Source: an uncultured Chloroflexia bacterium
GTDB lineage: Bacteria > Chloroflexota > Limnocylindria > Limnocylindrales > CSP1-4
Direction of reading: 5' to 3'
NCBI GenBank assembly: GCA_963720315.1
Contig: CAVRFC010000005.1
Coordinates: 863,437-927,436, forward strand
Length of the DNA stretch: 64,000 nt
The position numbers and the translations under genes were made by a program. The notes under the pieces are model-generated. The model was not told the origin of the DNA and searched no databases. It saw only the letters and a program-made list of their open reading frames with translations. This document shows, in pieces, positions 9,681-48,207 of the stretch (position 1 is the stretch's first letter; every line of letters begins with the position of its first letter).

Positions 9681-9864
9681 CCTGCTCCCTTCTACCAGAA
9701 CGACACGCTGGGGCGTGCCGAACGAAGTTATGGCCCGGCCGCTCGGAGGGCGGGGCAATTGACGGTAGAACGGGTGCTGCGCGTGACCTCGCGCCTGGGG
9801 GTCGCCCGTCCTGACCGTAGTTTGCACCGCGCGTCAAATCCGGCCCTACCCCGGTCGTTGACCG

Positions 9865-23620: not shown

Positions 23621-24375
23621 ATGATGGTCGACAAGACCTGTCCGAACTGCTTGTCGCTGGTTCCGGCTTTCAACGACCACTGCTATACGTGTGGGTACGA
23701 CTTCCCGGACGTCGCCCCCGATGAGACGCTGGCGAGCGCTGCCAACATGCCACCTCCGAGCGTGACGGTTGGGGGGCGCGTTCCGCCGCATGACGGCGCA
23801 CAGTCACGCGACAACGCCCGCCCAGGCGTCGTCACCGCCGCCGTCGCCGTGACCCTGTGGATGGGACTGGGCAACACGATCGGGGGCCTCGGCCACATCC
23901 AAGGTGTGGTCGAGACGGCCACGAGACGGGGCTATCCCTACGATTTCCGATACGCAGGGCTGCTCATCGTCGGGATCACGATCGCTACGTGGGCGTGTTA
24001 TGCCTCTGGGCGGTGCGCGGTCTCGCGCGCGGCGAACGACCTGCGTGGGACCGCGCGCTGAGCGGCACGATCCTGCTGCTCCTCGTCGCTGTACCGCTCA
24101 TTCCCGTCGAGCCGGACAATGCGGTCCTCCAGGCCGCGGTCCCGGGGACAGTGAGCCTGATCGTCCTGTTGGCAGCGCGGCCTCGACTCGGGACATTCAC
24201 GCCTTCGGCTTCGGACAACGAGCCGCAGCTGGTGCCCATCGGGGAATGGGACCCTGAGCTGCGGATCTGTCCGTGGTGCGGGAAGAAAGTCGCGGCGGAT
24301 CGCAAGTCACGCTGCAATCACTGCGGTGAACTCCTCGCCGCGCGATCGTCGCAGCCCCCGGTGAGCCACAGCTAA
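23621..24375 (+). CDS. Hypothetical membrane protein with N- and C-terminal zinc ribbons, apparently split between two frames (23621..24061, then ~24000..24375)
   Basis: CPNC...CYTC at the N-terminus, TM helices in the middle, CPWCGKKVAADRKSRCNHC at the C-terminus of the second frame. The junction near 23990-24010 is inferred, not proven. Confidence 0.45.
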
Positions 24376-25913
24376 CCGGCCGGCTGCGCCGCGACGACAT
24401 CCCCATCGGCATCGACTGTGTCGCCGCCCTCCGTCGCTGTCGCGTCGTCCTCGTCCATCGCCTGGAGAATCACTGTGGCGGCCGCGCCGCCGAGGGCCAG
24501 GATCAGCCAGAAATAGCGGGCGTACGAGAGGTGGAGGAAGAGCCCGCTGGCGAGGTAGCCGACGAGCGCCAGCATGAAGCCGGCGGCCATCGCCGCCAGG
24601 TCCGGCCGACGGCTCAACGCACGGGTCCGAGCGCGGGCGAGCTGGACCAGCGTTGCGACGACCGCTCCGAGGAACATCGTCAGCCCGAGGATCCCGGTCT
24701 CAGCAGCGAGGCCGAGATAGAGGTTGTGGGCTTCGCGGTCGGCCGCCCGGACGCTGACCCCGATCTCGTCGGCGTAGTCGCGGTAGTAAGCGGGAAACTG
24801 GCCCGGACCGACACCGAGGATCGGGTGGTCGGCGAACACTCGCAGGGCGGTCAGGTTCTCGGTCGCCCGGCTCAGCAGCGAGTTGTCGGTCTCTGAGGCA
24901 GCAGGCTCGTCGGACAACAGCGCCCCGAGGTCGGCGAGGCTGGCTAGGCGTGCCCCGTAGGCGGGGACGGCGATGAGGACGACCGCGATCAACGCGGCGG
25001 CCGCGACGAGGTGGCCGACCCGGATATAGCGGAGCGCGACCATCGCGACGAGGATGAGCCCCGCGGCCAGTGCCGCTCCCCGCGAGAACGTCAGCGCAGT
25101 CGCGATCGCCGCGAGGAGGGCGCAGCCCAGCGCGGCCACCCGCAGCCAGCGTTGGCGCTCGCCGGTGAACTGCATGACGGCGAGCGGGATGAGCATCAGC
25201 ATGATCTGGGCATAGCGGTTCTTCTCGCCGATGGGGCCTGCGAGCCGGGCGATGCCCGTCTCCGTAACGCCGGTGGCGGCCGCCTCGGTCTGGGCGAACC
25301 CGAAATACGACGTGCCGTATGTCTCGGTGATCTCCTGGAAGAAGGAGAGCGCCCCGAGGGCGGCTCCGACAAGGAGGAGCACCCAGATCACCGCGCGCAT
25401 GAGCTCGGGCGAGCGGATCGTGTTCGTGATGAGCAGGTAGAGGCCGATCCCCTCGACAAAGAACGTGCCGAGCGACGCGGCCGCATCGCTCGGGTCGCGG
25501 GCGGTTAGCGTCGAGAGAATCTGGACCACGAGGAGACCCGCGATCCACGGCATGGCCGGCGTCAGCACGATCTTGTGGCGACGGATCAGGATGTCGTAGG
25601 CGAGCGGCGCGGCGAGGATGATCGGGACCGACGCGCCGATGGCCAGCGGCACGCTGTGGAACTGGACGAAGACGACCGGGGCATTGCTGTAGATGAGCCC
25701 GACCACGATCAGGACCGCGGCCTCCGGCCGAATCGCCACCACCGCCACGCCGAGCAGGGCGAGCACCCCCGCGATCGCGAGGACCGGCTCATACGCGGCG
25801 ACGATCCCGGCCGCGAGGCTGATCGCGATCGTCAGGATGAGTGCGGTGAGCAGCAGGATCGGTCGCGATCGGTCGCGAGGCGGAGCACCGATTTCCGGGG
25901 CTACCGCGCTCAT
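24372..25913 (-). CDS. O-antigen ligase/polymerase-like (Wzy_C family) polytopic membrane protein
   Basis: About 12 TM helices, a LTFSRGAALAAGLILV motif region typical of Wzy/WaaL-type proteins, and a large periplasmic loop. Start overlaps the GT2 stop by 4 nt. Confidence 0.8.
   Translation of the reverse strand: MSAVAPEIGAPPRDRSRPILLLTALILTIAISLAAGIVAAYEPVLAIAGVLALLGVAVVAIRPEAAVLIVVGLIYSNAPVVFVQFHSVPLAIGASVPIILAAPLAYDILIRRHKIVLTPAMPWIAGLLVVQILSTLTARDPSDAAASLGTFFVEGIGLYLLITNTIRSPELMRAVIWVLLLVGAALGALSFFQEITETYGTSYFGFAQTEAAATGVTETGIARLAGPIGEKNRYAQIMLMLIPLAVMQFTGERQRWLRVAALGCALLAAIATALTFSRGAALAAGLILVAMVALRYIRVGHLVAAAALIAVVLIAVPAYGARLASLADLGALLSDEPAASETDNSLLSRATENLTALRVFADHPILGVGPGQFPAYYRDYADEIGVSVRAADREAHNLYLGLAAETGILGLTMFLGAVVATLVQLARARTRALSRRPDLAAMAAGFMLALVGYLASGLFLHLSYARYFWLILALGGAAATVILQAMDEDDATATEGGDTVDADGDVVAAQPAG
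24388..24416 (+). repeat. Right copy of the perfect 29-bp direct repeat
   Basis: Identical to 22751..22779. Lies inside the last ~15 codons of the minus-strand O-antigen-ligase-like gene (encodes VDADGDVVAA). Confidence 0.9.
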
Positions 25914-27082
25914 CGGTCGACCGACCCGGGGTCGCTGCCGCTTCGCGTCGGCTCCCAGCGCTCAATCCGCTTCCCTCGCAGGACGTTGATCGCGGCGTGA
26001 AGTGAGGCGAGGTTGACCATCACGAAGAAGCTGCCCAGAGCGACCGGGCGCGACCGACCGATGCGGGACGCGGGCGCCAGGAGGCCGACCGCCGCCGCGG
26101 CGTAGCCGCCGAGCTGGAGGATCGCGAGCAAGCGATGGAGGGCGCTCTCCCGGGCGAGGCTGAGGCTCATCGCTCCGGCCAACAGCACCGGGACGGCCAT
26201 CAACCGCCGGAGGAGCTTGTGCCAGGCGAGCTGGATTGCATAGAAGCCGGTCCGCCGCGGGTCGAGGAGTGCCCGTCGCGCGGCCACGCCCCGGAAACCC
26301 CTGCTGATGATCCGGACCTTCCGGCCGTACTCCCTGCTCGTCGTCGCGGCCGGTGGCTCGTACGCGATCGCGTCAGGGGCGAACACGAGCCGCCTCCCCT
26401 GGTCGATGACCGCTGTCGAGGTGTAGAAGTCGTCGGTCACACCGGCGATGATCGTCGGGACCAGCGACCGGCGCAGGGCGTAGATCGCGCCGGTGGCTGA
26501 GACGGTACTGCCCGCGGCGCTTTCGGCGCGCTTCATCAGTCGATCGAAGTCCCAGTAGCTCCGCTCGCCCATCCCTGCGGTCGAGGGATCGTCGGAAGTG
26601 TAGACCTGGTTGCCCGCAACGCCGCCGACGCTCGGGTCGGCCAGCGGCCGGACGATCGCCCGCAAGGCATCCCGGGCGAACGCGCTGTTGGCGTCGGTGA
26701 AGACGACCACGTCGCCGGTCGCCCGTTCCACGGCCGCATTCAACGCGTCAGCTTTACCAACCCGTCCGAGATCGAGGACGGTGACCCGCCCGGATGAGGC
26801 GGCCCGTGCAATCGCCACGGTGTCATCCTCGGACCCGTCCGAGGCGACGATCACCTCGAGCAGGTTTGACGGGTAGTCGAGCGCGGCCAGGTTGGCAAGG
26901 CGATCTGCGATGCTGGCGGCCTCGTTTCGGGCGGCGATCACGACCGAGATGGACGGCTCGATCGCCGCCCTGCTGACCGGGCGCGGTCGGAGAGCCGCCC
27001 GAGCCAGGATCAGAAGCGGTGCGCCGGCGAAGGTGAACGAGATGAGGCCGGCGGAAGCCCAGAAGATGATGCGCCGGATCAC
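25910..27082 (-). CDS. Family 2 glycosyltransferase with C-terminal TM helices
   Basis: SVVIAARNEAASI, EVIVASDGSEDDT, VVFTDANSAF (DxD-type) and C-terminal hydrophobic helices. Confidence 0.9.
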   Translation of the reverse strand: MIRRIIFWASAGLISFTFAGAPLLILARAALRPRPVSRAAIEPSISVVIAARNEAASIADRLANLAALDYPSNLLEVIVASDGSEDDTVAIARAASSGRVTVLDLGRVGKADALNAAVERATGDVVVFTDANSAFARDALRAIVRPLADPSVGGVAGNQVYTSDDPSTAGMGERSYWDFDRLMKRAESAAGSTVSATGAIYALRRSLVPTIIAGVTDDFYTSTAVIDQGRRLVFAPDAIAYEPPAATTSREYGRKVRIISRGFRGVAARRALLDPRRTGFYAIQLAWHKLLRRLMAVPVLLAGAMSLSLARESALHRLLAILQLGGYAAAAVGLLAPASRIGRSRPVALGSFFVMVNLASLHAAINVLRGKRIERWEPTRSGSDPGSVDR

Positions 27083-27155: not shown

Positions 27156-28622
27156 TCAGCGAGCGGAGAGTCCGGCGTCGTCCGGCTCGGTCAGTGTCAA
27201 GGACCGGGCAGCGCGCGATGTGGTTGCCCGGGTACGCTTCCGGGGCTCTCCTCGGCCGCCGGCCGTGGCGGCCGCCCGAGCTGCGACGGGTGCTCGGACG
27301 TCGACCGCCATCGTCGCCGGGGCGGTATCGGCGCGGGCAGAGCGGCGCAGGCGGATCGGTCCGCGCTCAGTCAGGATCACGCCGGACGGCGACGCTCCGA
27401 TGAGTCGAAGGGACTCGCCCGCGAACGCGACATCCTCGCGGCGGGACCGGTCGCGCCGGGCGACGAGGATGACGGAGTCGGCCGCACGGGCTAGGGCGAG
27501 GGTGACTGGCGATGCCTGGATTGGCGCGCCGACGATCACGACGAGGCCGTCGTCGCCGGCCAGCTTCGCGACGACCTCCCGCAGTTGTTCCGGGTCGGCC
27601 CCGTCCAGCCGGGCGCGGCCTGCCGGCAGGAGCGAGAGCGATCCCTCGCGGTCGGCCTGACGCACGGGAACGAGACCGTCTGCGAGCAGCTCGGACAGCC
27701 CGGCGCGGTCCTCCATGCCGTTGATCCGGGTAACGGTCCCGCCGGCCCCGGCTCCGTCGACGAGGACGACATGGCGCCCGAACCGGCTCAGCGCGGCCGC
27801 CAGGTTGGCGCCGACGACGGCCGCCTCGCCCTCCCGCTCGACGTCGGTCACCAGGATGGACCGGAGGGTTGCCCGCTCCGGCCCGAGGGCGACCTTCGCC
27901 GAGATGAGGCGGTACGGTGCCGCCGAACGAGACCCCGGTGTCGTAAGCACGACGAGATCCTCGGGTCCCGGCGGGTCTCCGCTCGGGGCGGGGACGGCTC
28001 CGAGGAACGGCGCCTGGGCGATCTTCGCCAGTTCCTGGCCAGTCCGGATGGTGTTGCCGAAGTATTCGAGCAGGAGGACGAGGATGATCGCCACGACGAC
28101 GCCGGCCAGGGCCGCGAGCAGGACGAGGAGCGAGACCTGGGGCGCGACGGGAGTCGTCTCGGGCCGGGCGAACTCGATGATCTGGATGAGACCCTCCGGC
28201 CGGCTGAGGCCGCGCGACGTCAGCTGCTCGAGCTCTGTCGCAAGCGTGTTGGCAAGCTTCGTCGCGACCTCCGGATCGCCTGCCTGGACACGGATCGTCA
28301 GGATTCGAGTCACGTCGTTGGCGGTCGCGCGCGTCGCGGCCGCGAAGTCGTCGGGGCTCAGATCGAGCCCCAGCTCCTGGATCGTCGAGGTGAGAACCTC
28401 GCGCGTCGTCACGTACTGGGCGAAGGTCTGCACGAGCGCCTGGCTCGCTCGAAGCGTGTCGGTATCGGTGTTCAACGGCCCGACCAGGACCTTGACCTGC
28501 GATTCGTACGTGGGCGCGATCGTCTGGGCGACAAGGTAGCCGCTCAGGCCGGCGATCCAGGCAGCGACGACCAGCGTCCACCACCAACGCTTGGCGACTG
28601 CTAGATACCCGGACAGCTCCAA
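27156..28622 (-). CDS. Polysaccharide co-polymerase (Wzz domain) fused to a degenerate, probably inactive BY-kinase-like P-loop domain
   Basis: The N-terminus YLAVAKRWWWTLVV...YESQVKVLVGP is Wzz-like, followed by a second TM. The C-terminal domain is colinear with CpsD/Wzc kinases, but Walker A is REGEAAV (no GK[ST]) and there is no C-terminal Tyr cluster. Confidence 0.8.
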   Translation of the reverse strand: MELSGYLAVAKRWWWTLVVAAWIAGLSGYLVAQTIAPTYESQVKVLVGPLNTDTDTLRASQALVQTFAQYVTTREVLTSTIQELGLDLSPDDFAAATRATANDVTRILTIRVQAGDPEVATKLANTLATELEQLTSRGLSRPEGLIQIIEFARPETTPVAPQVSLLVLLAALAGVVVAIILVLLLEYFGNTIRTGQELAKIAQAPFLGAVPAPSGDPPGPEDLVVLTTPGSRSAAPYRLISAKVALGPERATLRSILVTDVEREGEAAVVGANLAAALSRFGRHVVLVDGAGAGGTVTRINGMEDRAGLSELLADGLVPVRQADREGSLSLLPAGRARLDGADPEQLREVVAKLAGDDGLVVIVGAPIQASPVTLALARAADSVILVARRDRSRREDVAFAGESLRLIGASPSGVILTERGPIRLRRSARADTAPATMAVDVRAPVAARAAATAGGRGEPRKRTRATTSRAARSLTLTEPDDAGLSAR

Positions 28623-28760: not shown

Positions 28761-29738
28761 TCAACGGACCATCTGCACGCGGACCGCCGACAGCGGCGTC
28801 CGAACCGAGACATTGATCCGGCGGAGCAGGAGCCAGCTCGCCGTGCGCAGGTCGTTCACGCCCCGTGCAGTCGTGAAGGCAATCCGGAGACCCGCCGCGC
28901 TGACGGCCTCGGCGACCGCGGGCGAGGCCGCCCCTGACGGATAGGCGAAGACCGGCAGGTTCGACCCGGTCTCGCGAGCGAGGTCATCCCGGGAACCCGC
29001 GATCTCGGCCTCGAGGGCTTTCGGCTCCAGGCGGGGCAACAGCGGATGTGTCCGCGTATGGGGCGCCAGCGCTGCTCCTTCGCCGGCCAGGTCACGGAGC
29101 TTGGCCCAGCCGAGCACGAGGTTCCCGGGCTGCTCGCCGCCGAGCTCCTCGACGAGCCGATCGACTGCCTCGAGCATTCGATCGTGGGCCATCGCCTTCA
29201 ATGCATCCCGGATCGCGCGGTACGCGCGGACCCGCTCCTGGGCCGATCCGAGGGGCAACTCGCCGCTCGGGGACACAACGGAGGGACGCGACGACGTCGA
29301 AACGGCCCGATGGATACGGTCCCACCAGAAGCTGAGCGTTGGAGCGTCCGGGTAGGCGGTCGGTACGAACAGGACAGCCGACAGCCCGCGCGCGCGGAGC
29401 GCCGGCCAGGCGTGCTCGGCGAAGTCGACATAGGCGTCGTCGAACGTGAGCAGCAGTGACCGAGGCGGGAGGGCCGGGCCGCCGTTCGAACGCCGGATGA
29501 GGTCGTCGACTGAGATCACCGCGTGGCGCTTGGCGAGCGTATCGAGCAGCTCGCAGAAGCTGGCCGGGGTCGCGCTGAGCAGTCCGGGCGCGACGTCGAC
29601 GCCGGGCGGCGCGACGCGATGGAATGTCAGGACCGCCAGTGAGTCCGGCCGGCGAGGCACGAGCCGCTCGAGGATGTCGACCGCCGCCGCCGCGGGCGGG
29701 CCGGCGGCGAGCGCCCGAAGAACGCCTGTGAGCGCCAT
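28761..29738 (-). CDS. Polysaccharide deacetylase (NodB/CE4 family)
   Basis: LLLTFDDAYVDF (TFDD motif), HTRTHPLL (H-x-x-x-H) and FAYPSG. ATG at 29738 lies 2 nt after the upstream stop; the Arg-rich ORF extension to 30014 was rejected. Confidence 0.85.
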   Translation of the reverse strand: MALTGVLRALAAGPPAAAAVDILERLVPRRPDSLAVLTFHRVAPPGVDVAPGLLSATPASFCELLDTLAKRHAVISVDDLIRRSNGGPALPPRSLLLTFDDAYVDFAEHAWPALRARGLSAVLFVPTAYPDAPTLSFWWDRIHRAVSTSSRPSVVSPSGELPLGSAQERVRAYRAIRDALKAMAHDRMLEAVDRLVEELGGEQPGNLVLGWAKLRDLAGEGAALAPHTRTHPLLPRLEPKALEAEIAGSRDDLARETGSNLPVFAYPSGAASPAVAEAVSAAGLRIAFTTARGVNDLRTASWLLLRRINVSVRTPLSAVRVQMVR

Positions 29739-29740
29739 CC

Positions 29741-31027
29741 TCAGCCGGCCGGGCGCGCGGCGTCTACCCTCGCCGGGTCGGCGGCCTCGGCCGGCCTCCG
29801 GCCCACGGCCGTCGAGAACAGGCGCCTGCCGGCTGCCCGGAACCCGGCGGCCGCGGTGTGCACGACGTCCGCGACGAACGGCAGCGGATCGTGCCGCGAG
29901 AAGACCGCCTCGACCTTCGGGCCCCTCACGGACGTCAGCCAATCGCCGACCGACAGCTGACCGCGACGGGCTCGGACGAGCGCGGCCTGGAGGTCGTGGC
30001 GCCAGTAGATCCACTTGACGCCGCGATATTCCTGCGTCACCGCGTCCGGCAAGGGCTCGCCGAGGGCGTCCCGGTATGCGGACATGAGGAGCTCCACGCC
30101 ACCCTTCTCGGCGATCGCCGACCGGCCGGTCGGCCGCCCGATGTTCGGCTCGATGATCATCAGCCGGCCGGTCCGTTCATCCTCCTTCGCCTCGACGTAA
30201 CCGAGTCCCCGGTAGGCAACGCTCCCGAAGAGGTCCCGGGCGATCGACTCGGCCTCCGGGCTTCGCACCTCCTCGCCGAGGCAGCTCGTGCCGGTGTCGA
30301 GGGGCCATTGCCGGAGCTTGCGAGCGACGAAGGAGACGCGCTGCGCCGATGCCCGGTCGTAATAGGTGTTGACCGAGTAGAGCGAACGTTCGGGGCCCGG
30401 GACCCACGACTGGGCGATCAGGACGTCCGCCCAGGAAGCGCAAGCGTCGTAGCGGGCGAGCAGCTCGTCGGGCGTCTCGACTCGGATCGCCTTCGCCTTC
30501 GTGGCAGCGAGCCACGCTGGGCCCTTGAGGCCGGGCTTCAGGACCGCCGGGAACGTCAGGGACGCCGCTGCGAGTTCGGCGTCGGCCCGCGAGCGGAGGA
30601 CGGCCGTCGGCGGGATCGCCAGGCCCGTTGCGATCGCGTGCTCGGCGAAGCCGACCTTGTCCATGAGCCGCTCGACGTCGGCGTGGTCGGGCAGGACGAA
30701 TCGGAACGCACCGGCCAGGCGTTCGCGGCCGGCGGAGATCGCAAGCACCGCCGCGTCGGTGCAGGGGATGAGCACGCCCGGCTGGTCGAGGCGGGCGCCG
30801 AGCGCCACGAGGGCGTCGACGAGCGCCTCGCCACGGAGCGTTGCCCGGACGATCGCGATCGGCAGCCGGGTCCGGGCGCAGAAGTGCTGCGCATCGGCGA
30901 CGACGCCAACGACCGGGATGCCCCGAGCCTCGAAGATCCGGGTCGACTGCAGGCCGGTGATGCAGTCCAGCCCGACGATGACGGCGGGCGGGCGGTCGGT
31001 CGGGATCCGACCCGTCGCTCGGATCAA
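29741..31027 (-). CDS. ATP-grasp carboxylate-amine/thiol ligase-like protein (COG3919-like)
   Basis: FPAVLKPGLKG, YSVNTYYD and GLGYVEAKEDERTGRLMIIEPNIGRPTG (ATP-grasp E-x-N). The TTG start at 31027 overlaps the PepM stop (TTGA). Confidence 0.7.
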   Translation of the reverse strand: MIRATGRIPTDRPPAVIVGLDCITGLQSTRIFEARGIPVVGVVADAQHFCARTRLPIAIVRATLRGEALVDALVALGARLDQPGVLIPCTDAAVLAISAGRERLAGAFRFVLPDHADVERLMDKVGFAEHAIATGLAIPPTAVLRSRADAELAAASLTFPAVLKPGLKGPAWLAATKAKAIRVETPDELLARYDACASWADVLIAQSWVPGPERSLYSVNTYYDRASAQRVSFVARKLRQWPLDTGTSCLGEEVRSPEAESIARDLFGSVAYRGLGYVEAKEDERTGRLMIIEPNIGRPTGRSAIAEKGGVELLMSAYRDALGEPLPDAVTQEYRGVKWIYWRHDLQAALVRARRGQLSVGDWLTSVRGPKVEAVFSRHDPLPFVADVVHTAAAGFRAAGRRLFSTAVGRRPAEAADPARVDAARPAG

Positions 31028-31935
31028 GCCGGACCGGCCTCGTCCTCGAGGGCGATCGCTTCCTTCGTGCCGACGAGGTCGAAAATGTGATTGACCGACA
31101 CGATGTCGTCCTCGACGTCGGACGCTCGCCCGGCGACGGCCAGCTTGGCGAGGGTCGCCTCCATCGCCCCAACCGCGGCGCGCATCGGATGGTTGGCAAG
31201 GATGACGAGGTTGAAGCCCCGCTCGTAGAGCTGGGCCGACGAGAAGGTCGGGAAGAGCGTCGGAACGGCGACCAGGGGGAGCTTGCCGAAGCCCTTCCAC
31301 GACGACAGGAATCCGTCGATCTCGGCCAGGGTCTTGTCGCGCGAGTGGATGAGGATGGCGTCGACGCCGGCATCAGCGTAGGCATCGGCGCGTTCGCAGG
31401 CGTCTTCCACGCCGTGACCGGCGATCAGGCTCTCGACCCGGGCGATGAGGATGAAGTCATCGGTCTGCTGCGCCCGCTTCGCCGCCCGCAACCGGCGTGC
31501 CTGCTCTGCCGCCGGGATCAACTCGCGCTTCGTCTCCGCGCCGAGGAGGCTGTTCCGCTTGGGGAACAGGTTGTCCTCGATGCTGATCCCCGAGATCCCG
31601 GCCCGCTCGTACTCCACGAGCGTGCGCACGACGTTGCCGAGTCCCCCGAAGCCGTTGTCGCAGTCGGCGATGACCGGGAGCTCAGTTGCGCCGTCGATCC
31701 GCTGGGCCGCCGCAAGCGCCTCCGACATCGTCGTGAGGTTCAAGTCGGGCAGGGCATGGGCCATCGTCGCGACGCCAAGCCCGCTGACCCAGACGGCGTC
31801 GAAGCCGTGCTCGCCGATCAGCTTTGCGCTCAGGGCATCGTGAGCCCCGACGGCGACGATCGATCGGGTGCCGTGGAGGCCTTCCTTGAGTCGCCTCCGC
31901 TTGGCGTCCGCCCTATTCACGGTGGCTCGGGACAT
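31024..31935 (-). CDS. pepM: Phosphoenolpyruvate mutase (PepM)-like, isocitrate-lyase/PEP-mutase superfamily, with variant motif EDNLFPKRNS
   Basis: WVSGLG...LPDLN, PVIADCDNGFG, GISIEDNLFPKRNSL (PepM hallmark EDK-X5-NS with K->N), ARVES and ILIHS, colinear with characterised PepM as I remember it. Confidence 0.75.
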   Translation of the reverse strand: MSRATVNRADAKRRRLKEGLHGTRSIVAVGAHDALSAKLIGEHGFDAVWVSGLGVATMAHALPDLNLTTMSEALAAAQRIDGATELPVIADCDNGFGGLGNVVRTLVEYERAGISGISIEDNLFPKRNSLLGAETKRELIPAAEQARRLRAAKRAQQTDDFILIARVESLIAGHGVEDACERADAYADAGVDAILIHSRDKTLAEIDGFLSSWKGFGKLPLVAVPTLFPTFSSAQLYERGFNLVILANHPMRAAVGAMEATLAKLAVAGRASDVEDDIVSVNHIFDLVGTKEAIALEDEAGPA

Positions 31936-32881
31936 GGATCGGGGACATCTGTTCCTCCGCGGACACTGGATCGAAACGATCGATGATTGCGATGACTTCC
32001 TGGCCGATTTCCTCCTGCGCGTCGATCGTCTGCGCGCCGATGTGCGGCGTCAGGACGACATTCGGCAGGTCCGCCAACGGCGATCGCTTGCCCTCGCCCT
32101 CTGCCACGTGGACATCGAGTGCGGCGCCGCGGAGCCGGCCGCCGGGCTGCAGGGCGTCGAAGAGCGCCGCCTCGTCCACGACGCCGCCACGGGCGATATT
32201 CACGAGGAAGGCGCCGGGCTTGACCTTTGCCAGCTCAGCCGCGCCGATCATCCCGCGGGTGGTGTCACTGAGGGGGACATGCAGAGAAATGAAGTCGCCC
32301 TCGACGAGGACGCGATCGAGGTCGGCGAGGTCGATCCCCTGGTCGGCGAAGGCACGCGAACGCTCCTCGCTCGGACGCTCGACGACGCCGATCGGGCGCA
32401 TTCCCCAGGCCCCGCCAAGAGCCGCAACGCGGGAGCCGATCGAGCCAAGCCCCACGATCCCGAGCCGCTTGCCGCGCAGGTTGTAGCCCACCAGCTCGGA
32501 CTTCGCCCAGTGGGCCGCCCGCAGATGGCGATCGGCCAGGACGATGCTGCGGGCCAGCGCGATCATCAGGCCGAACGTCAACTCGGCGACGGCCTGGGCG
32601 CCGGGTCCCGGGATGCGGATCAGCTCGATTCCGCGCTCGCGGACCGTCGCGAGGTCGAGGTTGTCGAGCCCGGAGCCGGCGCGGACCAGGAGCCGCAGGT
32701 CGGGTGCGGCGAGCACGCCCGGCCCGATGCTGACGCCGCTCCGGAAGACGATCGCCTGGCGGTCGGACGCGGCCTCAGCGAGGACGTCCTCGGACGCGCC
32801 GATTGCCGTCCGGACATCGTGCCTCGACTGGAGTGCCGCGAGCGCGCCGGGGGCGATCTGGCTCGCGACGAGGATTCGCAT
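31913..32881 (-). CDS. D-isomer-specific 2-hydroxyacid dehydrogenase (SerA/PGDH-like); candidate phosphonopyruvate reductase
   Basis: GKRLGIVGLGSIGSRVA (NAD fold), NIARGGVVDE and TPHIGAQT (catalytic His). Its 3' end overlaps the pepM start by 23 nt, and its ATG shares one nt with the upstream TGA. Confidence 0.85.
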   Translation of the reverse strand: MRILVASQIAPGALAALQSRHDVRTAIGASEDVLAEAASDRQAIVFRSGVSIGPGVLAAPDLRLLVRAGSGLDNLDLATVRERGIELIRIPGPGAQAVAELTFGLMIALARSIVLADRHLRAAHWAKSELVGYNLRGKRLGIVGLGSIGSRVAALGGAWGMRPIGVVERPSEERSRAFADQGIDLADLDRVLVEGDFISLHVPLSDTTRGMIGAAELAKVKPGAFLVNIARGGVVDEAALFDALQPGGRLRGAALDVHVAEGEGKRSPLADLPNVVLTPHIGAQTIDAQEEIGQEVIAIIDRFDPVSAEEQMSPIHVPSHRE

Positions 32882-33754
32882 CACGAACCTGCCACCGACG
32901 GGTTGTCCACGATCGTCGGCTGCCCGATCGAGGCGACCAGTTCGTCGACCGGGGCCGGCGGCGGGACCGGTGCCTGCGTCCCTTCGGCCGGCGCAGCGAC
33001 GCCCTTCGCCTGGCCGCTCACGTCGCCGACGATGGTGCCGCCCGATACGAAGGCGACGATTCGTCCGACGACGTCGTCGATCACTTCGCCAACGGGCCGG
33101 TCGGCGTCGACCACCTGGAACGCCGGGAGGACACGCTCGAGATCGAGGTACTCGAGCCGGCGCTTCGCTACTCGCTCGAGCGATTCTCCCGGCTTGCGCG
33201 CGGATCAGGACCTCCGGCGGGGCGTCGAGGAACAGCGTCAGCTCCGGCTTCGGATACCAGTGGCGAAGCACATAGCCGTGAATTCGCGCGTCGAGCGGCC
33301 GCCGACCGTTGGTCGGGGCGATCGTGGTTGCGTAGTAGTCGGCGAAGAAGTGACGATCGAAGACGACGAGCGCAGGGCGTCGCTGGATGCGCCGGGCGAG
33401 GGCGGCCCGATAGGCCTCCTCGGCGAGCCAGTTCGTGATCCGGATCAGCCGCCGGGCGGCCACGAGCAGGCCACCGCGACGCGAGTCCGGTTCCGAATGG
33501 CCGACCGTCATGTCAGGGTTGCCGCCGCGCCGGCGCTTGATGGCCAGGGCCAGGCGGGTCGTCGGGAGCATGACCGGGCTCGCCGCGAGGTTGACGCCCA
33601 TGTAGAGGTAGCCGGCGTCGAAGGGCAGTCGCCCGATCAGTTCGTGGGCGACGGTCGACTTGCCGGCGCCGTCGATTCCGATGAGCGCGACGCTTCGACC
33701 GATCCTCTCGGGTGGGGCTGGCGACGCCCTACCGGCCGCGTCGTAGTTCCTCAT
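32881..33754 (-). pseudogene. P-loop nucleoside/nucleotide-kinase-like protein (thymidylate-kinase fold), frame break near 33200
   Basis: VALIGIDGAGKSTVAHEL (Walker A) and VVFDRHFFADY. After LDAPPEVLI the homologous continuation RKPGESLERVAKRRLEYLDLERVLPAFQVVDADRPVGEVIDDVV lies in another frame (ORF 32881..33114). Confidence 0.65.
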
Positions 33755-33913
33755 CTGCGTACTAGGACCCCCACCGGAATGCACCGGCGGCGCCGCCGGA
33801 GTCAACGAACCGGGAGTGTAGGTCAAGTTGGGGCCCGCTTGCGCGGGCTGATGGTGCCCGACGCACCGGTCAGGGCCATATCGCGCGCGGAATGTGTTGC
33901 AGGTCAGCAACAT

Positions 33914-35063
33914 TCACGAAGGTGCGTCAGCCGGAAGACCGATTGCCCCGGCGATCAGCCCGTGAAGCGCCGGGATATCCGGCGGGTAAGGGTGCCGGAC
34001 GGAGACGCACGGCTTCCCGCCGAACGCGTCGATCAGGCATTGCTCGACGATGGCCGGCAGCGACTCGATGAACGGGTTGCGGCGATCGGGGAAGGCGTAC
34101 CGGAACGTGAGATAGAGCGCCTGGAGATCGAGGAGCTCGTGGACCACGGTTGCCGCCGTGCGGCGGGCGACGATCGTCCCGTCGATCGGCTCGGCGGCGG
34201 CCTCCGGTTCGCTCGAACTCTCGACCAGGACAACGGCGTCGAGCGGCGTGAGGCCCACCGAGACGCGCCCATCGAAAACGCGCTTCGGCGGGATCTGGAG
34301 CGATCGCTGGTTGTCGGCCATCGCCCCGAGCCGTCGGGCGACGTCGCCAGGGGCCGACGAGCGGATCAATGGCAGGCGCGCGGCGCCGGCGAGGAGTCGC
34401 GCGACCGACGCAGCCGCCCCCAGCCGGAGGCGTCGACCCGTCCCGATCCGGTCTCGCAGCTCGAGGCACCATCGCAAGCTGCCAGTCCCATAGCCGCATG
34501 GGCTCGGGAAGGCCGGCCATCGCGGACCCATCGGCGGTCACGAAGACCCACTCGTCGCCGACATAGGTCGCGCCGCGGTCGGCGAACGCCAGCAGCACCT
34601 CGGACTTGCCGCCCTTCGCCCATCCCGTCACCAGCGTTCCGCGGCCGCCCGCGATGAACGCGCTGGCATGGACCGGGACGATCCCCTTCGAGAGGAGCGT
34701 CAGGTTGATGATCGGAAGGAGGTAGGGGACAGCTGAGAGCCCGCGCTCGGCGACGATCTCGAGCGGTGTCGTGCCGATCTGGGCGACCGGGATCGTGACG
34801 TTGACAGTCGTCTTGCGGCGCCCGCGCAGGACGACAAACTCATCGTCGCCGTAGGCCGCTTCTCGACCGAGCGGTCGGAGGACGCCGCGAACCTCGAGGC
34901 GGTCGACGAAACGTATGGTGATGTCGCCGGTTGCCGCGTCGACCTGGGGCAGGGGTCCGAGCTGGCTGGTGATGGCCGCGACCTCGGGTCGGCCGGCATC
35001 CACGAGGGCGATCGTCAGCAGCCCGTGGAGATCGAGGACGGTCGTGGCCCGATCAGACGACAC
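33914..35063 (-). pseudogene. HPr-kinase-related (HprK C-terminal-like) P-loop protein, frame break near 34480
   Basis: HASAFIAGGRGTLVTGWAKGGKSEVLLAF resembles the HprK P-loop (G-x-S-G-x-GKSE). The C-terminal half continues in ORF 33914..34531. GTG at 35063 overlaps the flippase stop by 11 nt. Confidence 0.6.
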
Positions 35064-36630
35064 GGCGCTCGACCTCGCTCTCCGGCTTGCCAATCAGCTC
35101 GCGAATTACTGGGATCTTCAGCAACTCCGGAAAGTAGCGGCCGATCTGGAGTGAGCTGCGGGTGATGCCAAGGAGCCCGACGGAGACGGCCGCAACGAGC
35201 GGGACTCCGAGAAGCAGCGGCATGTTGGTGACCAGCTGGACAAACGTCAGCGCCGCGAGCGCGGCCGCGATCGTCAGGTACGTCAGGACGTGCCGAAGCG
35301 AGGGCAAGCCGATCGCCGATAGAGAAAGACCCGCCTGGTAGAGCAGGTTCTGGATGATCAGGGTCGATGCCGTCGCGACGCCCGCCCCGAGCGCGCCGTA
35401 CGAGCCGATGAGCAGGACGCTGGCCGTGAGGCTGATGACCGCCGACAGGACGTCGACCGCGACGATGAAACGGACCGATCCCTGGACCCGGAGCGTCAGC
35501 GCATTGAAGCCGAGCGCGGCATTGACGTAATGGCCGATTGAGAGGACGGCGAGGACTGCGGCCGCGTCCGCATACGCCGCGCCGAACAGGAGCACGGTCA
35601 GGGGCCCGGCGAGCGCGACCGTCAGGGCGAGCGCCGGGAACGTCGCCACGGCGATCCAGGCCGAGGTCTGCCAGTACATGTTGCGCAACCGGTTGTACTC
35701 GCCCCGGGCGAACAGGCGTGCGGCGACCGGGACGAACAGGAAGCCGAAGCTCTGGTAGATGACGAGGTTCTGGCGAGCGAGGGGCAGCACGGCGGCGTAG
35801 GCGGCCACTTCGTTCGACGTTGCCAGGCGCTGGAGGATGATGACGACCGCCGACGTCCGTAGCAGGAAGACAACATCGGACGACAGCAACGGCAGGGTGA
35901 AACCGAACATCGCCCGGACCGGAAGGCTGAAGTCGCGGCGCAGGATCCGGCCCGCGATCCCCTTTTGTTCCAGCAGCCGGGCGAGGAGTATCGCGAACGC
36001 GGCCGCCCCGACGATTCCCGCAACGACATAGCCGATCGCCAGGACCTCCGCGGGTTGGTCGGCGAGGATGACGACGGCGACGACGATCAGCTGCAGCCCC
36101 GGCGCGAGAATGTTGCGTCGAAGGACGATCGAGCGGGCGCTCCCGAAGATCGCGAAGCAGGCGGTCGCGAGGCTGTCGAAGGCGCGAACGGGAGCGAGAA
36201 GGAAGAGAAACAGCATCAGCTGTCGAGCGAGCTCGTTCTCGACGATGTCGGTGCCGAACCTGGACTGAAGGCCGATGAGGGCGAGCAGCATCGCGGCACA
36301 GACCCCGCCGACGACACCGAACGCGAGGACCAGGGAGCCCGCCAGCCGACGCTCGTCCCGCTGCTCCTCGTAGAGAGGCACGAACCGCGAGATCGTCTTG
36401 TCGAGGCCGAGCAGGGCCACGGTCGCCGCCAGCGAGGCCACGGACAGGCCGAAGGCGAATGCTCCGAACTCCGTCCGCGACAGCGCCCTGACGATGAGGA
36501 TCTGCGTCGACAGATCGAGTATCAGCCCGATGAACTTCCCGAAGACGAGGATCGTCGAGCCGCGGAAGTGGCCGGCCTCTTCGTGAAGCGTCCCCTCCTC
36601 GCCCGCGGCTACCCGATCTTCCGGCTCCAT
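35053..36630 (-). CDS. Wzx-type polysaccharide flippase (MOP/PST family)
   Basis: About 12-14 TM helices; N-terminus ILVFGKFIGLILDLSTQILIVRALSRTEFGAFAF is typical of polysaccharide-biosynthesis (Wzx) proteins. First gene of the minus-strand operon. Confidence 0.85.
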   Translation of the reverse strand: MEPEDRVAAGEEGTLHEEAGHFRGSTILVFGKFIGLILDLSTQILIVRALSRTEFGAFAFGLSVASLAATVALLGLDKTISRFVPLYEEQRDERRLAGSLVLAFGVVGGVCAAMLLALIGLQSRFGTDIVENELARQLMLFLFLLAPVRAFDSLATACFAIFGSARSIVLRRNILAPGLQLIVVAVVILADQPAEVLAIGYVVAGIVGAAAFAILLARLLEQKGIAGRILRRDFSLPVRAMFGFTLPLLSSDVVFLLRTSAVVIILQRLATSNEVAAYAAVLPLARQNLVIYQSFGFLFVPVAARLFARGEYNRLRNMYWQTSAWIAVATFPALALTVALAGPLTVLLFGAAYADAAAVLAVLSIGHYVNAALGFNALTLRVQGSVRFIVAVDVLSAVISLTASVLLIGSYGALGAGVATASTLIIQNLLYQAGLSLSAIGLPSLRHVLTYLTIAAALAALTFVQLVTNMPLLLGVPLVAAVSVGLLGITRSSLQIGRYFPELLKIPVIRELIGKPESEVERRVV

Positions 36631-36642
36631 CAAGGCCGACGC

Positions 36643-37747
36643 ATGGGCGTGCGCGTGGCTGGTAGTCTCGAAACGGTGGACGCCCTCGAGTCGATCCTCG
36701 CCGAACTCCGCCCCCTGGTTCGCGAGTGGTACCCGGATGCGGACGCAACGGCCGAGCTCGACGTCCTCGACGTCGATTCGCGCGTCGTCACGCACGTGAT
36801 CCGGGTCCGGGTCGCGCGGACAACTGGGCCCCCGGCGACGCTCATCGTCAAGGCCGGCGCGGCGGACACTCCACCGGACGCATCACGATCGGCCGCGCCT
36901 CGTGCCGATGACCGACCAGTCCGACCGCGTGCAGCTGGAATACGAGGCGCTGCGAACCGTAGAGGCCAGAGTGGCGGAGGTCGGCGATCCCCGTTTCGTG
37001 GCCGTCCGCCCGCTCGGCGTCCTGCCCGAGTCGAACGTGCTCGTCATGGAGGCATTCGATGGCGAGCCGCTCCATCGATTCCTCGTGCGACGTCCGTTTC
37101 GATCGAGAGCCGCGCTCGCGCCCTCGATCCTGGCACGGGCGACGGGACGGTGGCTTCGCATCCTGCACGACACCCCGTCGTCGACCCAGGTGCGGCAGGG
37201 GACCAGGGAGGACGTCGTCGACGCCTTTGCCGCGTTCGGCTCGTACCTGGCCGCCGAGAAGGTTTCGCCCCACCTCGACGAGTTCATCGAGGTGGGAATC
37301 GCGTCGGCACGGCGGCTCCCCGATCCGCTGCCGACCGTCATCACCCACGGAGACTTCGCGCCGCGAAACATTCTCGTCGACGGATCGGGCCGGATGGCCG
37401 TCATCGACCTGCTCCTCCGATGGCAGGCGCCGGCCTTCGAGGATATCGCGGGTTTCCTCGTGGCCCTCCAGACGAGCCGGGCAAACGCGGCGACGCGCGG
37501 ACTACTGTTCGGGCGCACCATCGAGAGGCTGGAGCCTGCCTTTCTTACGGGGTATTACGGTTCGGAGCCGGTGCCGCGGAACGCGATCCGGGTCTACGAG
37601 CTCCTGCTCGTCCTCGACAAATGGTCCGCCCGAGCGATCCGGAACCGGACGCTCGGGGGCGTCCGACGCATCCGCGAACGAATGATCGACAGCCACTTCG
37701 ACACCCGGTCACGGTTACTGGCTCGCCGCCTCCGGGAGCAAATCTGA
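36643..37747 (+). pseudogene. Aminoglycoside-phosphotransferase/choline-kinase-fold (APH/LicA-like) small-molecule kinase, probable frame break at ~36870-36905
   Basis: The C-lobe lies in ORF 36902..37747 (ITHGDFAPRNILVD ... VIDLL = Brenner H-x-D-x4-N and metal-binding D). The N-lobe with the conserved Lys strand (PATLIVKAG) lies in the frame starting at ATG 36643. Confidence 0.6.
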
Positions 37748-38611: not shown

Positions 38612-40595
38612 CCGAGCCCGACGAAGGACAACCGGCTGCCGCGACCAGCAACGCTTCGGGAGGCGTCGCGGGCTCGCCCGTTGGCGATCCCGCTGAACCG
38701 CGGACCGCGGATGCTGTTGAGCGGCCGCCTGCCGATCTCAGACGACGAGCTCTCATTCTGACTCCCCTCGTCGCCATCGTAGTCGGGCTTGCCGTCGGCC
38801 TCGCCAATCTCCCTACCGGGCGGCCCGTCACGGCCGGCGACAGTTCGCAGTCGCCATCGGCTGCGGTGGTGACCGAGTCGGGCTACCTCGTCAGCCTCGA
38901 CGAGCTGCGTCGGCGGGGCGACATGGCGGCCCGCGGCGAGGAGCCTCACGCATCCGCCGTCACCAACCTCATGGAATGGGCCGACAAGGCCGTCACCGAA
39001 GCTGCCCGTCCCACGCAGCCGTTGCGGATCGTGGGAACCGACAATGAATTCGTCGACGACGCCCGTCGCGCGTACGGTCTCGGCCTGGCATTTGGACTGA
39101 GCGGTGACGAGCGCTATGCCCAGGCGGCCCGTCGGACCATCCGCAACTGGATGGACGTGGTTACGACGACGACCGACACGTGCCCCGACGGTGGTGGCTG
39201 CCACACGTCGCTGATCATCGGTCGCGCCGGCGCGGGTTTCGCCTTCGGCGCGGACCTCATCGCCAGCTCTGAGGCCTGGACAGCCGACGATCGGGCCGAC
39301 CTCCAGGCCTGGATGCGCGAACGTCCTCCTGCCCGCGGTCTCCCACCGGCCGAACAACTGGGGCGACGCGGGGACGTTTCTGCGCGTCGTCGCTGCCGAT
39401 TACGCGGGGGACCAGCGCGAGTTCGATCTGGCAATCGAGAAGTGGCGATCCCTCATCGATCTGATCGAGCCGGACGGCCGGATTCCCGAGGAGGTCCGGC
39501 GCGGCGCGGCGGGAATCCTGTACACGCAGGAAGCGCTCCAGTACAAGGTGGCCGTCGCGCGAATCGCCGAGCGCCGCGGTATCGACCTCTGGGACTACGT
39601 GGGTGCGCGAGGCGGGTCGCTGCGCAAGGCAATCGACCGCCTGGCGTACTACTGGCAGCGACCCGACGACTGGCCGGACTACGAGGGACCCACGGTTCCC
39701 AGCACCGGACCGCTGTGGGAGATCGTGTACGCCCACTGGCAGGACAAACGCTGGCTCGACATCCTGCTGGACGGCCGTCCGTACGGAGATCAAGGGCACT
39801 CGGCCATCCGCTGGACCACGCTGACCAACGGCATCCCCGTCGAGCCGCTCGTGGCTGGTGGGCCGTCCGGAAGCCCCGGAGCCTACGGCGCGCCCTAGTG
39901 CCTCGGCGTCATCGACGCCGCCGTCGGCTCCGGGCCCTCCAATAAGCGGATTGGCAGTTGCGCTCGGGTCGTCCCTGGGCAACCCGCTGCCCGTGGTGAT
40001 CAGGTGGGTCGCGCCGGAAGTCGCGGGCGCCAACGTCGAGCTGGAAGAGTCCGCCGGCGGGGCCTGGGCGGCCATGAAGATTGGTTCAGACGGTCACTCG
40101 GCGCGCGACTCGCTGCGGCTCGGCCGCGTCACGGCGTACCGGGTTCGGGCCGTCGTCGCGGGCAGCGCCGGGCCATGGGCGGCGCTCGATAGCGTCTCGG
40201 TCGAGCGCATCGAGGCGACCAGCCGGACCGCCGACTTGAGCGGGACATGGGCCCGGGTTGCGTTTTCCGGCTACTCGGGCGGATCCGCCCTCTCGACGGA
40301 CGCGAGTGGGGCGACGATGGTCTGGCGTGGCACGACACAGTCCCTCGCCATCGTCGGGCCCACCGGTCCCACGCGCGGCCGGATGATCGTCACCGTCGAC
40401 GGCGTCCGTGCCGACGATATCGACCTTCGATCCAGCCGCTTCCGGGCTCGGAACGTCCTTTTCACGATGTCCTGGAGCGATGCGGCCGTCCACGAGCTTG
40501 TGATCGAAGCCCGACCGTCAAGCGGCCGCCGGACAGTCGCGGTAGACGACATCGTTACGTTGACATCCACCCTCACCGCTCCACAAGGTTCATGA
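38605..40595 (+). pseudogene. Secreted alginate-lyase-like + FN3/CBM-like protein (paralog 3), at least two frame breaks (~39320 and ~39880)
   Basis: Frame 1 runs to LQAWMRE. Frame 2 continues NVLLPAVSHRPNNWGDAGTFLRVVAADYAG...LWDYVG...IRWTTL. Frame 3 (39858..40595) carries the C-terminal domain colinear with 7788..9680 (GPTGPTRGRMIVTVDG). Confidence 0.8.
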
Positions 40596-47544: not shown

Positions 47545-48207
47545 ATGATCAATTGGTTCACCACGCTCTTCGCCGGCCTCGTCGGACTGATCGTTGGACT
47601 GCTATTTGGCGACCCGCTGCCCGGGGTGGCGTTCGGGCTCGGACTGCTCCTTGGCGGCGCCGCATCCGTCGTCGTCGTGCCCGCGTTGCGAGCCGCCCCG
47701 GCCGGCATCAAGGGCGCAGCCATCGACGACGTGGCTGTGGGCTGGATCGAATTCCACCGCGAGCTGGCGCGGGCGAGGCGGTTCGAGCGTCCGTTCGCCA
47801 TCGTCCGCTTCTCAGTTGGTCGCTCGCCAGACCAGGGGGTCCTCGTGGGCCTTCGCAATGAGATCGCCGCAATCTCCCGCCGCATCGACCGGCTGTGGAT
47901 CGACGAGGACGACATTCTCCTTCTCCTCCCGGAGGCCACCGAGGCAGCAGCGAAAGTCGCTCTGTCCAGGGTCTACGTCCGGGTCCCGGCAGCAGTTGCC
48001 TTCGAGCCCGGGCTCGCGCTGTACCCGGAGCATGGAATCACGAGCGGCGCGTTGATCGCAGCGGTCTACGGCAACGGGCAGGCGGACGTCCCCACGCCGA
48101 TCGCGGCGGCACGACCGGAACTGTGGCTCCAGCCGGCCGCGGGCATGGCCATCCAGACGGAAGGCGCTGCCGGCGGGTCGGACGAAGTGGCGAGCCAGAG
48201 TGGCTGA
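47545..48207 (+). CDS. Membrane protein with a degenerate GGDEF-like domain (GGDEF replaced by DEDDI)
   Basis: Two N-terminal TM helices. EFHRELARARRFERPFAIVRF ... SRRIDRLWIDEDDILLLLPEATEAAAKVA ... GLALYPEHGITSGALIAA is colinear with the diguanylate-cyclase fold but lacks the GG(D/E)EF and metal-binding residues. Confidence 0.6.
   Translation: MINWFTTLFAGLVGLIVGLLFGDPLPGVAFGLGLLLGGAASVVVVPALRAAPAGIKGAAIDDVAVGWIEFHRELARARRFERPFAIVRFSVGRSPDQGVLVGLRNEIAAISRRIDRLWIDEDDILLLLPEATEAAAKVALSRVYVRVPAAVAFEPGLALYPEHGITSGALIAAVYGNGQADVPTPIAAARPELWLQPAAGMAIQTEGAAGGSDEVASQSG

Follow-up and report, generated by a model that had tools for sequence, protein, structure and literature searches.

Known phosphonoglycans carry 2-aminoethylphosphonate (AEP), 2-hydroxyethylphosphonate (HEP) or methylphosphonate, attached after nucleotidyl activation. 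Envelope chemistry of another kind is represented by VanH and VanA, a D-lactate dehydrogenase and a D-Ala-D-Lac ATP-grasp ligase, and by Cj1438 of Campylobacter jejuni, an ATP-grasp amidoligase involved in capsule modification. Genes for carbon-phosphorus (C-P) chemistry are found in surface-glycan loci in the case of AEP-type tailoring, which combines phosphoenolpyruvate (PEP) mutase (PepM), phosphonopyruvate decarboxylase (Ppd) and an AEP transaminase (AEPT) with PntC and LicD, as for polysaccharide B of Bacteroides fragilis (PMC6697681, PMC8942020). Reduction of phosphonopyruvate by a 2-hydroxyacid dehydrogenase is an established coupling route (PMC8942020, PMC12871164), exemplified by the 2-Hacid_dh_C reductase VlpB of the valinophos pathway, in which ATP-grasp ligases are also used (PMC8942020, PMC12723261). 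Here we describe a minus-strand operon in a 64,000-nucleotide (nt) stretch of contig CAVRFC010000005.1 from an uncultured Chloroflexia bacterium (hereafter the window, whose numbering is used throughout), in which a PEP-mutase-like gene, a dehydrogenase gene, an ATP-grasp ligase gene and two P-loop kinase genes form a cassette among the genes of a Wzx/Wzy-type polysaccharide. Like the valinophos cluster of Streptomyces durhamensis (VlpA, VlpB, VlpF), the cassette pairs a PEP-mutase-type enzyme with a 2-Hacid_dh_C reductase instead of Ppd and includes an ATP-grasp ligase (PMC8942020, PMC12723261, PMC12871164), and by analogy it resembles the VlpA/VlpB branch point, transferred to a glycan operon and supplemented by two kinases. 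We propose, with moderate confidence, that its products act in the cytoplasm to form a C-P acid of the phosphonolactate type, which they then place on the repeat unit of a Wzx/Wzy-dependent surface polysaccharide.

The PEP-mutase-like protein (31024-31935) has the PEP_mutase/isocitrate-lyase superfamily fold, with a Pfam match to PF13714 over residues 17-265 (E 4.3e-54) and full-length alignments to the PepM structures 1M1B (Mytilus edulis) and 5UNC (Streptomyces platensis). Its best NCBIfam model is TIGR02320 PepM (260.6 bits), followed by phosphonopyruvate hydrolase (PPH; 202.9) and PrpB (164.2). In a phmmer alignment to 1M1B it retains W44, S46, G47, L48, D58, D85, D87, E114, K120, N122, S123, L124, R159 and H190, which we take to be catalytic and ligand residues of the Mytilus enzyme, with W44, S46, G47 and L48 presumably forming the carboxylate site; all Mg2+, phosphoryl and carboxylate ligands are shared with 1M1B, 5UNC and the Variovorax PPH 2DUA. 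The sole motif difference from 1M1B is the replacement of K116 by N, which gives the sequence EDNLFPKRNS. When GTDB was scanned with one genome for each species, 80 loci came up (designated by L numbers where they need to be told apart), 58 of which encode a protein with this EDN..NS signature, and the change from K to N is fixed, EDN[LVAT]FPKRNS being present in 120/120 best homologs and in 58/58 family loci. Position 122 in the alignment is N in mutases, T in PPH and the catalytic Cys in methylisocitrate lyase, and because of this distribution the NS pair is read as the mutase state and the active site as mutase-like. A PPH-like hydrolase was considered and rejected, given N rather than T at position 122 and a gene context that is biosynthetic rather than catabolic. 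Published PepM inventories filter on an exact EDKX5NS match (PMC8942020, PMC12723261), and proteins of the EDN..NS lineage can therefore never enter them. Among 1.84 billion cluster representatives searched, the family lay embedded in PepM-like clusters, most of them EDK..NS and many fused to nucleotidyltransferases; in a minority the motif was EDN..NS, EDQ..NS, EDS..NS or EDN..CS. The family was monophyletic in 99/100 bootstraps of neighbour-joining (NJ) distance trees, the method used here rather than maximum likelihood (100 bootstraps).

We note in passing a sister lineage with about 50% identity and the motif EDN[IL]FPKRCS (L064-L072, L074-L086), which is found in Binatia, Methylomirabilota and Omnitrophota. 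One of its members (L074 9902-11656, 584 amino acids) is fused to a C-terminal MobA/IspD-like nucleotidyltransferase domain, an architecture that mirrors the canonical PepM-nucleotidyltransferase fusions, and its gene stands alone amid unrelated genes (TldD/PmbA, exonuclease, RND efflux).

The dehydrogenase encoded directly upstream of the mutase-like gene (31913-32881) carries a 2-Hacid_dh_C domain (E 6.6e-52) and scores 246.7 bits against the catalytic part of the phosphoglycerate dehydrogenase (PGDH) model TIGR01327, without its ACT domain. In the PDB it comes closest to the PGDHs 1WWK and 1YGY, and it also scores against glyoxylate reductase and VanH models. The overlap of 23 nt between the two genes reported in the original prediction is confirmed, and would shrink to 8 nt if the GTG at 31920 served as the start of the mutase-like gene. 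That prediction was also right in stating that a PGDH homolog, which is VlpB, reduces phosphonopyruvate in the valinophos pathway and that ATP-grasp ligases are employed there (PMC8942020, PMC12723261). The VlpB type, as defined elsewhere (PMC8942020), is a 2-Hacid_dh_C dehydrogenase beside a mutase and without Ppd, which is the arrangement found here. In relatives, the PGDH-like reductase gene lies directly upstream of the PepM-like gene, with overlapping codons, in 53/55 loci, and a candidate enzyme for pulling the unfavourable equilibrium is thus co-encoded.

One locus with a substitute is particularly informative about the reductase. In a Solirubrobacteraceae metagenome-assembled genome (MAG; L028 8073-14985), the PGDH-like gene is missing and the position between the HprK-like and ATP-grasp genes is occupied by an Ldh_2 gene, whose product scores highest against the L-sulfolactate dehydrogenase model (242.8 bits), all others scoring 135 bits or less. 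Phosphonopyruvate and phosphonolactate have sulfopyruvate and sulfolactate as their sulfonate isosteres, and the replacement by a non-orthologous enzyme accordingly supports, as the probable substrate of the reductase, a pyruvate whose C3 carries an anionic tetrahedral group. In the same locus, two dTMP-kinase-like genes flank the PepM-like gene.

The cassette lies within a locus that has the components of a Wzx/Wzy-dependent pathway, Polysacc_synt, Wzy_C, Wzz/GNVR and GT2 domains all being present. Pfam and NCBIfam scans order a single gene string from 36630 down to 24372, which opens with a Wzx-type flippase (35053-36630; PF01943 Polysacc_synt, E 6.7e-11; ~14 transmembrane (TM)-like segments; 77% identity to the wzx product of relative L002). 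Next come the five cassette genes: an HprK-like P-loop kinase of the PEPCK/HprK fold (33914-35063), a P-loop kinase of the dTMP-kinase fold (TMK-like; 32881-33754), the dehydrogenase, the PEP-mutase-like enzyme and an ATP-grasp ligase of the carboxylate-amine type (29741-31027; assigned from profile comparison with the PDB and from AlphaFold2 (AF2) and Foldseek). The string continues with a CE4 polysaccharide deacetylase (28761-29738; PF01522, E 2.7e-16), a Wzz/PCP chain-length determinant with a C-terminal tyrosine-kinase-like ATPase (27156-28622; Pfam Wzz and GNVR, NCBIfam TIGR01006 and TIGR01007) and a GT2 glycosyltransferase (25910-27082; PF00535, E 6.6e-26), and closes with a polymerase of the Wzy/O-antigen-ligase family (24372-25913; PF04932 Wzy_C, E 7.7e-22; ~12 TM-like segments). 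The genes named in the original prediction, with their coordinates, strand and families, are all borne out by these scans and by tblastn. Its description of a block of five overlapping or abutting genes stands for most junctions, namely wzx/HprK-like (11-nt overlap), TMK-like/dehydrogenase (stop and start sharing TGATG), dehydrogenase/PepM-like and PepM-like/ATP-grasp (4-nt overlap), and fails for HprK-like/TMK-like, where 159 nt separate the stop of the former from the start of the latter at 33754. The deacetylase gene follows the ATP-grasp gene after a gap of 2 nt. A scan for promoters and terminators gave no useful signal for the operon boundaries. Ppd, a class-V (AEP) aminotransferase and a cytidylyl- or other nucleotidyltransferase were found neither in the operon, nor among the window's open reading frames (ORFs) that were scanned (a part of the total), nor in the ~10-kb flanks either side in relatives, in keeping with what had been noted earlier for Ppd, the transaminase and the cytidylyltransferase.

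The combination recurs well beyond this genome. The 58 EDN..NS loci belong to Chloroflexota, Actinomycetota and KSB1 and are distributed over Limnocylindria-type Chloroflexota, Nocardioidaceae/Propionibacteriales, Geodermatophilaceae, Acidimicrobiia, Solirubrobacterales, Gaiellaceae, Egibacteraceae and one KSB1 MAG; cultured carriers include Geodermatophilus telluris DSM 45421 and Nocardioides caldifontis YIM 730233. Among the 39 loci with enough flanking sequence, an ATP-grasp gene is present in all 39 (directly downstream of the PepM-like gene in 48/56 loci), a dTMP-kinase-like gene in 36, an HprK-like gene in 33, a wzx homolog in 24 and any homologous glycan gene in 34. The neighbourhood search suggested earlier, for pepM with a 2-hydroxyacid dehydrogenase, an ATP-grasp and an HprK-like gene, thus finds the set recurring across two phyla, and the proposed coupling logic of PepM-like enzyme, reductase and ATP-grasp ligase in a Wzx/Wzy operon holds and is strengthened by these comparative data. 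Relatives in Limnocylindria conserve the entire wzx-to-wzy operon with intact kinase genes and add an epimerase and a GT4 gene, and in Actinobacteria the wzx homolog (34-41% identity) travels with the cassette. The N. caldifontis cassette (L034) is flanked by Bac_transf, GT2, GT4, three sulfotransferase and wzx genes, and in a Gaiellaceae MAG a Bac_transf gene lies immediately upstream. Homologs of the APH/choline-kinase family are found near the cassette in many Nocardioidaceae loci and accompany it in several lineages. The three N. caldifontis sulfotransferases map to L034 2453-3613, 16859-18061 and 19153-20028, and a G. telluris ORF (L021 12196-13134) resembles a sulfotransferase of that locus in its N-terminal sequence; the decorated glycan may also be sulfated in these two organisms. 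Literature searches turned up nothing published about the cassette or about PepM in Geodermatophilus, Nocardioides or Limnocylindria.

Taken together, these data are suggestive of the following scheme. The PEP-mutase-like enzyme would convert PEP to phosphonopyruvate, as its conserved catalytic residues imply, and the translationally coupled PGDH-like dehydrogenase would reduce this to phosphonolactate, thereby pulling the unfavourable equilibrium, a step proposed because of gene context and of the sulfolactate-dehydrogenase-like displacement in one lineage. More speculatively, the ATP-grasp ligase may turn a carboxylate into an acyl phosphate, C1 of phosphonolactate being the simplest choice, and couple it to the glycan precursor through an amine or a hydroxyl group; a soluble CE4 deacetylase, encoded next to the ligase in Limnocylindria, could free the sugar amine. 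The group on which the two P-loop kinases act may be the phosphonate or a hydroxyl, and Wzx, Wzy and Wzz would export and polymerise the decorated unit. For the first two steps the argument draws on residue conservation, on the tight coupling of the genes, on the displacement by a sulfolactate-dehydrogenase-like enzyme and on the published VlpB precedent. The glycan substituent derived from phosphonolactate that was originally predicted gains from the comparative context, with glycan loci in both phyla, while its attachment and the identity of the product are what we infer from that context.

The HprK-like protein gives weak NCBIfam matches to HprK_rel_B (HprK-related kinase B) and to the phosphonate-monophosphate kinase FomB, the latter being the best NCBIfam match of the G. 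telluris ortholog (E 3.6e-6). Its profile matches HprK in the PDB around the P-loop only, and Foldseek with its AF2 model (pLDDT 93) returned only distant PEPCK and HprK/P matches (TM 0.2-0.46), from which the protein is best described as a predicted PEPCK/HprK-fold kinase without a close solved relative. FomB, a fosfomycin kinase, shares the HprK-like P-loop and is the best or second-best NCBIfam match of the HprK-like proteins; the cassette differs from the FomA/FomB pair in that this similarity is weak (17-26 bits) and confined to the P-loop region, and in that a dTMP-kinase-fold protein stands in place of the amino-acid-kinase partner of FomA type. An AA_kinase/aminotransferase ORF of L050 was considered as a FomA analogue and rejected, being ArgB with ArgD of a neighbouring arginine operon. 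The TMK-like profile matches thymidylate kinases in the PDB (E 1e-9), with an invariant GxDGAGKST P-loop and DRHF motif. Between P-loop and DRH, members of its family also share a highly conserved insert (Y-x-G-V-N-L-x-A-S-x-x-M-L-P-T-T-R) with no counterpart in the PDB-matched thymidylate kinases, which may be an acceptor-binding element. FomB-like and nucleoside-monophosphate-kinase-like enzymes are precedents for the phosphorylation of a phosphate or phosphonate; possibly, the kinases form an anhydride on the phosphonate or, alternatively, phosphorylate a hydroxyl.

The ATP-grasp protein resembles Ddl, cyanophycin synthetase, RimK and LysX in profile searches of the PDB, and PurK, biotin carboxylase, Ddl and RizA in Foldseek (AF2 model, pLDDT 88); source records name it 'D-aspartate ligase' or 'carboxylate--amine ligase'. 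For this model and that of the HprK-like protein, Foldseek yielded fold-level matches only and no functional analogue. The deacetylase shows no TM-like or hydrophobic segment in a crude hydropathy scan, which is compatible with cytoplasmic action on a precursor; its gene follows that of the ATP-grasp ligase in Limnocylindria and some Acidimicrobiia, not in Nocardioidaceae, and is found in 10/39 loci.

Several observations weigh against our proposal. The TIGR02320 score lies below the curated equivalog cutoff of 319.55, and the diagnostic EDKX5NS is retained in its NS part only, EDK being EDN. The protein fell outside the most recent common ancestor of the Mytilus and S. platensis PepMs in 93/100 NJ bootstraps, and outside a clade that also includes the hydrolase PPH in 77/100; placement outside the PepM clade, which the original prediction had named as telling against it, is thus in part what the trees gave. 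Compared with 1M1B, 5UNC and 2DUA, the protein therefore stands apart by its identity of 35-41% (41% to S. platensis PepM, 41% to PPH, 35% to Mytilus PepM), by N for K116, by its position outside their common clade and by its sub-cutoff score. Its nearest sister group (EDN..CS, mean identity 44.5%) has Cys in place of N122. The PepM identity originally assigned is therefore upheld by fold, catalytic residues and best NCBIfam model and not by the EDK motif, the TIGR02320 cutoff or NJ placement; membership in PepM (EC 5.4.2.9) is not established by motif, cutoff or phylogeny, and it is from conserved residues that we infer mutase activity throughout the family. The likeness to VlpB rests on the domain and gene context described for that protein, not on its sequence. 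Two conserved P-loop kinases are not accounted for by the proposed scheme, and neither a LicD-type phosphonate transferase nor a nucleotidyltransferase was found in the operon, the scanned ORFs or the relatives' flanks, which makes the attachment chemistry a guess. In one Acidimicrobiaceae MAG (L027 6202-15494), the reductase-mutase pair is followed by a methyltransferase gene and flanked by genes for an ATP-grasp protein, a FemAB/FemX-like aminoacyl transferase and a nonribosomal peptide synthetase (NRPS) C-T-TE protein, which suggests that the same head group can feed peptide-type products. Head-group modules with a bona fide PepM are found in settings of this type. Finally, two cassette genes are broken in this window.

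Some of these departures would be explained if the enzyme were not a mutase and the cassette made an ordinary D-2-hydroxy acid of the lactate, glycerate or malate type, which the ATP-grasp ligase would then attach to a glycan following VanH/VanA logic. The position outside the characterised PepM clade, the low score, EDN in place of EDK and the lyase-like Cys of the sister lineage at the N122 position are all consistent with this, as are the matches of the reductase to glyoxylate reductase and VanH models and the precedent of PPH, which indicates that close PepM relatives can have other activities. We nevertheless consider it unlikely, as every PepM catalytic residue is kept, N122, S123 and L124 included, with no lyase Cys; the reductase is closest to phosphoglycerate dehydrogenases rather than to lactate or glyoxylate enzymes; its sulfolactate-dehydrogenase-like replacement points to a C3-anionic pyruvate; and the supply of pyruvate or oxaloacetate needs no dedicated enzyme. 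Were C-P chemistry granted, the product might still be a free small-molecule phosphonate, either valinophos-like or a phosphonolactyl peptide or ester, the position in a glycan locus being incidental or regulatory. ATP-grasp ligases do build phosphonopeptides and the valinophos ester (PMC11867202, PMC12723261), and the methyltransferase, FemAB-like and NRPS genes around the L027 reductase-mutase pair fit such a product. Against it, wzx and wzy of Limnocylindria enclose the five genes in a single operon with overlapping codons, a glycan context recurs in Nocardioidaceae, Geodermatophilaceae and Gaiellaceae, and a wzx homolog co-occurs (24/39 loci); neither a dedicated small-molecule exporter nor, within ~10 kb either side in L001-L003 and L005, a PGK- or GAPDH-like gene was seen. 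A stand-alone metabolite accordingly seems to us rather improbable.

Two of the five cassette genes, those of the kinases, prove to be frameshifted here, which the original prediction had not reported. The HprK-like and TMK-like genes are each split into two frames in tblastn searches with orthologs, through uncompensated 1-bp insertions near 34460 (an extra G) and 33202, respectively, in comparison with L005 (an Illumina contig, 94% identity) and L007 (a MAG, 95% identity); removing one base per site yields ORFs of 382 and 290 amino acids. Were these shifts real, the cassette would be a decaying pseudogene cluster without product in this genome, whatever its relatives do. Such decay would fit the spread of damage to two neighbouring genes, since single-base insertions versus L007 also shift an APH-like gene once (~36870) and an alginate-lyase-like gene twice (~39320 and ~39890), making five frameshifts in ~8 kb. 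The same spread, on the other hand, means that the defect is not cassette-specific, and all five shifts are single-base insertions, as is typical of assembly error. None occurs across 24.4-32.9 kb; the reading frames of wzx, of a methyltransferase gene and of all seven genes from wzy through the dehydrogenase are undamaged, and the substitutions in the PepM-like gene are synonymous, its protein being 100% identical to that of L007 (the 31000-32000 bin, which also takes in the end of the dehydrogenase gene, has 16 DNA mismatches). The kinase genes are intact in all close relatives. Moreover, most genes in the long-read MAGs L008 and L009 fall into two or three tblastn pieces, while the same locus is clean in the Illumina-derived L002 and L005, a sign that indel errors are common in the long-read data. 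As flanking genes are hit in the same way and the close relatives are all intact, assembly error is the more likely origin of the kinase insertions, and we regard genuine decay as having only a small chance of being correct. A GC3 frame-plot of the whole window was too noisy to call frameshifts.

The window has a G+C content of ~70%, and its nearest public record is CAVZKO010000008.1, a Chloroflexota MAG of 95% DNA identity, with homologs named Candidatus Limnocylindria/Limnocylindrales. The frameshifted APH/choline-kinase-family gene lies at 36685-37702 on the plus strand, divergent from the operon, its family being assigned through PF01636 in the L001 and L002 orthologs, and the alginate-lyase-like gene lies on the same strand (38743-40592). 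No priming transferase is encoded in the operon; a Bac_transf gene 11.5 kb away on the plus strand (48200-48823), encodes a PglC-like sugar-phosphate transferase of 207 amino acids (PF02397, E 1.3e-63), which is a candidate for initiating the glycan. Other ORFs with no obvious tie to the cassette encode a PPK2 polyphosphate kinase (4304-5134, minus strand), a second alginate-lyase-like protein (7788-9827, minus strand) and a protein resembling ADP-forming acyl-CoA synthetases (11554-13473, plus strand).

The genes vlpC-E encode PGK-, GAPDH- and reductase-like proteins; no PGK- or GAPDH-like gene was found in the window operon, and the locus further differs from that of valinophos in its separate EDN..NS mutase lineage, its two P-loop kinases and its setting in a Wzx/Wzy operon rather than a small-molecule cluster. 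AEP-type tailoring likewise places C-P genes in surface-glycan loci, but here no Ppd, aminotransferase, nucleotidyltransferase or LicD was found, and activation would proceed through a carboxylate and ATP-grasp chemistry, or through a kinase-made anhydride, rather than through CMP. With VanH/VanA the cassette would share the passage from a 2-keto acid to a D-2-hydroxy acid and on to ATP-grasp ligation, and Cj1438 offers another case of ATP-grasp chemistry on envelope polymers; the keto acid and the acceptor differ, and there is no close sequence relationship.

A more far-reaching interpretation, which we put forward as a doubtful one, is that the EDN..NS proteins constitute a second C-P-forming mutase lineage overlooked by every census based on EDKX5NS, that the kinases make a phosphonyl-(di)phosphate anhydride, and that the outcome is a new phosphonolactyl decoration of exopolysaccharides in abundant soil Chloroflexota and Actinomycetota. 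The anhydride would then provide a nucleotide-independent activation of the phosphonate for transfer, or an acid-anhydride handle acting with the ATP-grasp ligase. Direct tests are within reach, since two carriers, G. telluris DSM 45421 and N. caldifontis YIM 730233, are in culture. If it is true that the family makes C-P compounds, phosphonate production in soil is under-counted, since producers have been mined by exact EDKX5NS, and a phosphonolactate substituent installed by an ATP-grasp ligase, with or without the kinases, would represent a new decoration chemistry and a new redox sink for soil phosphorus.

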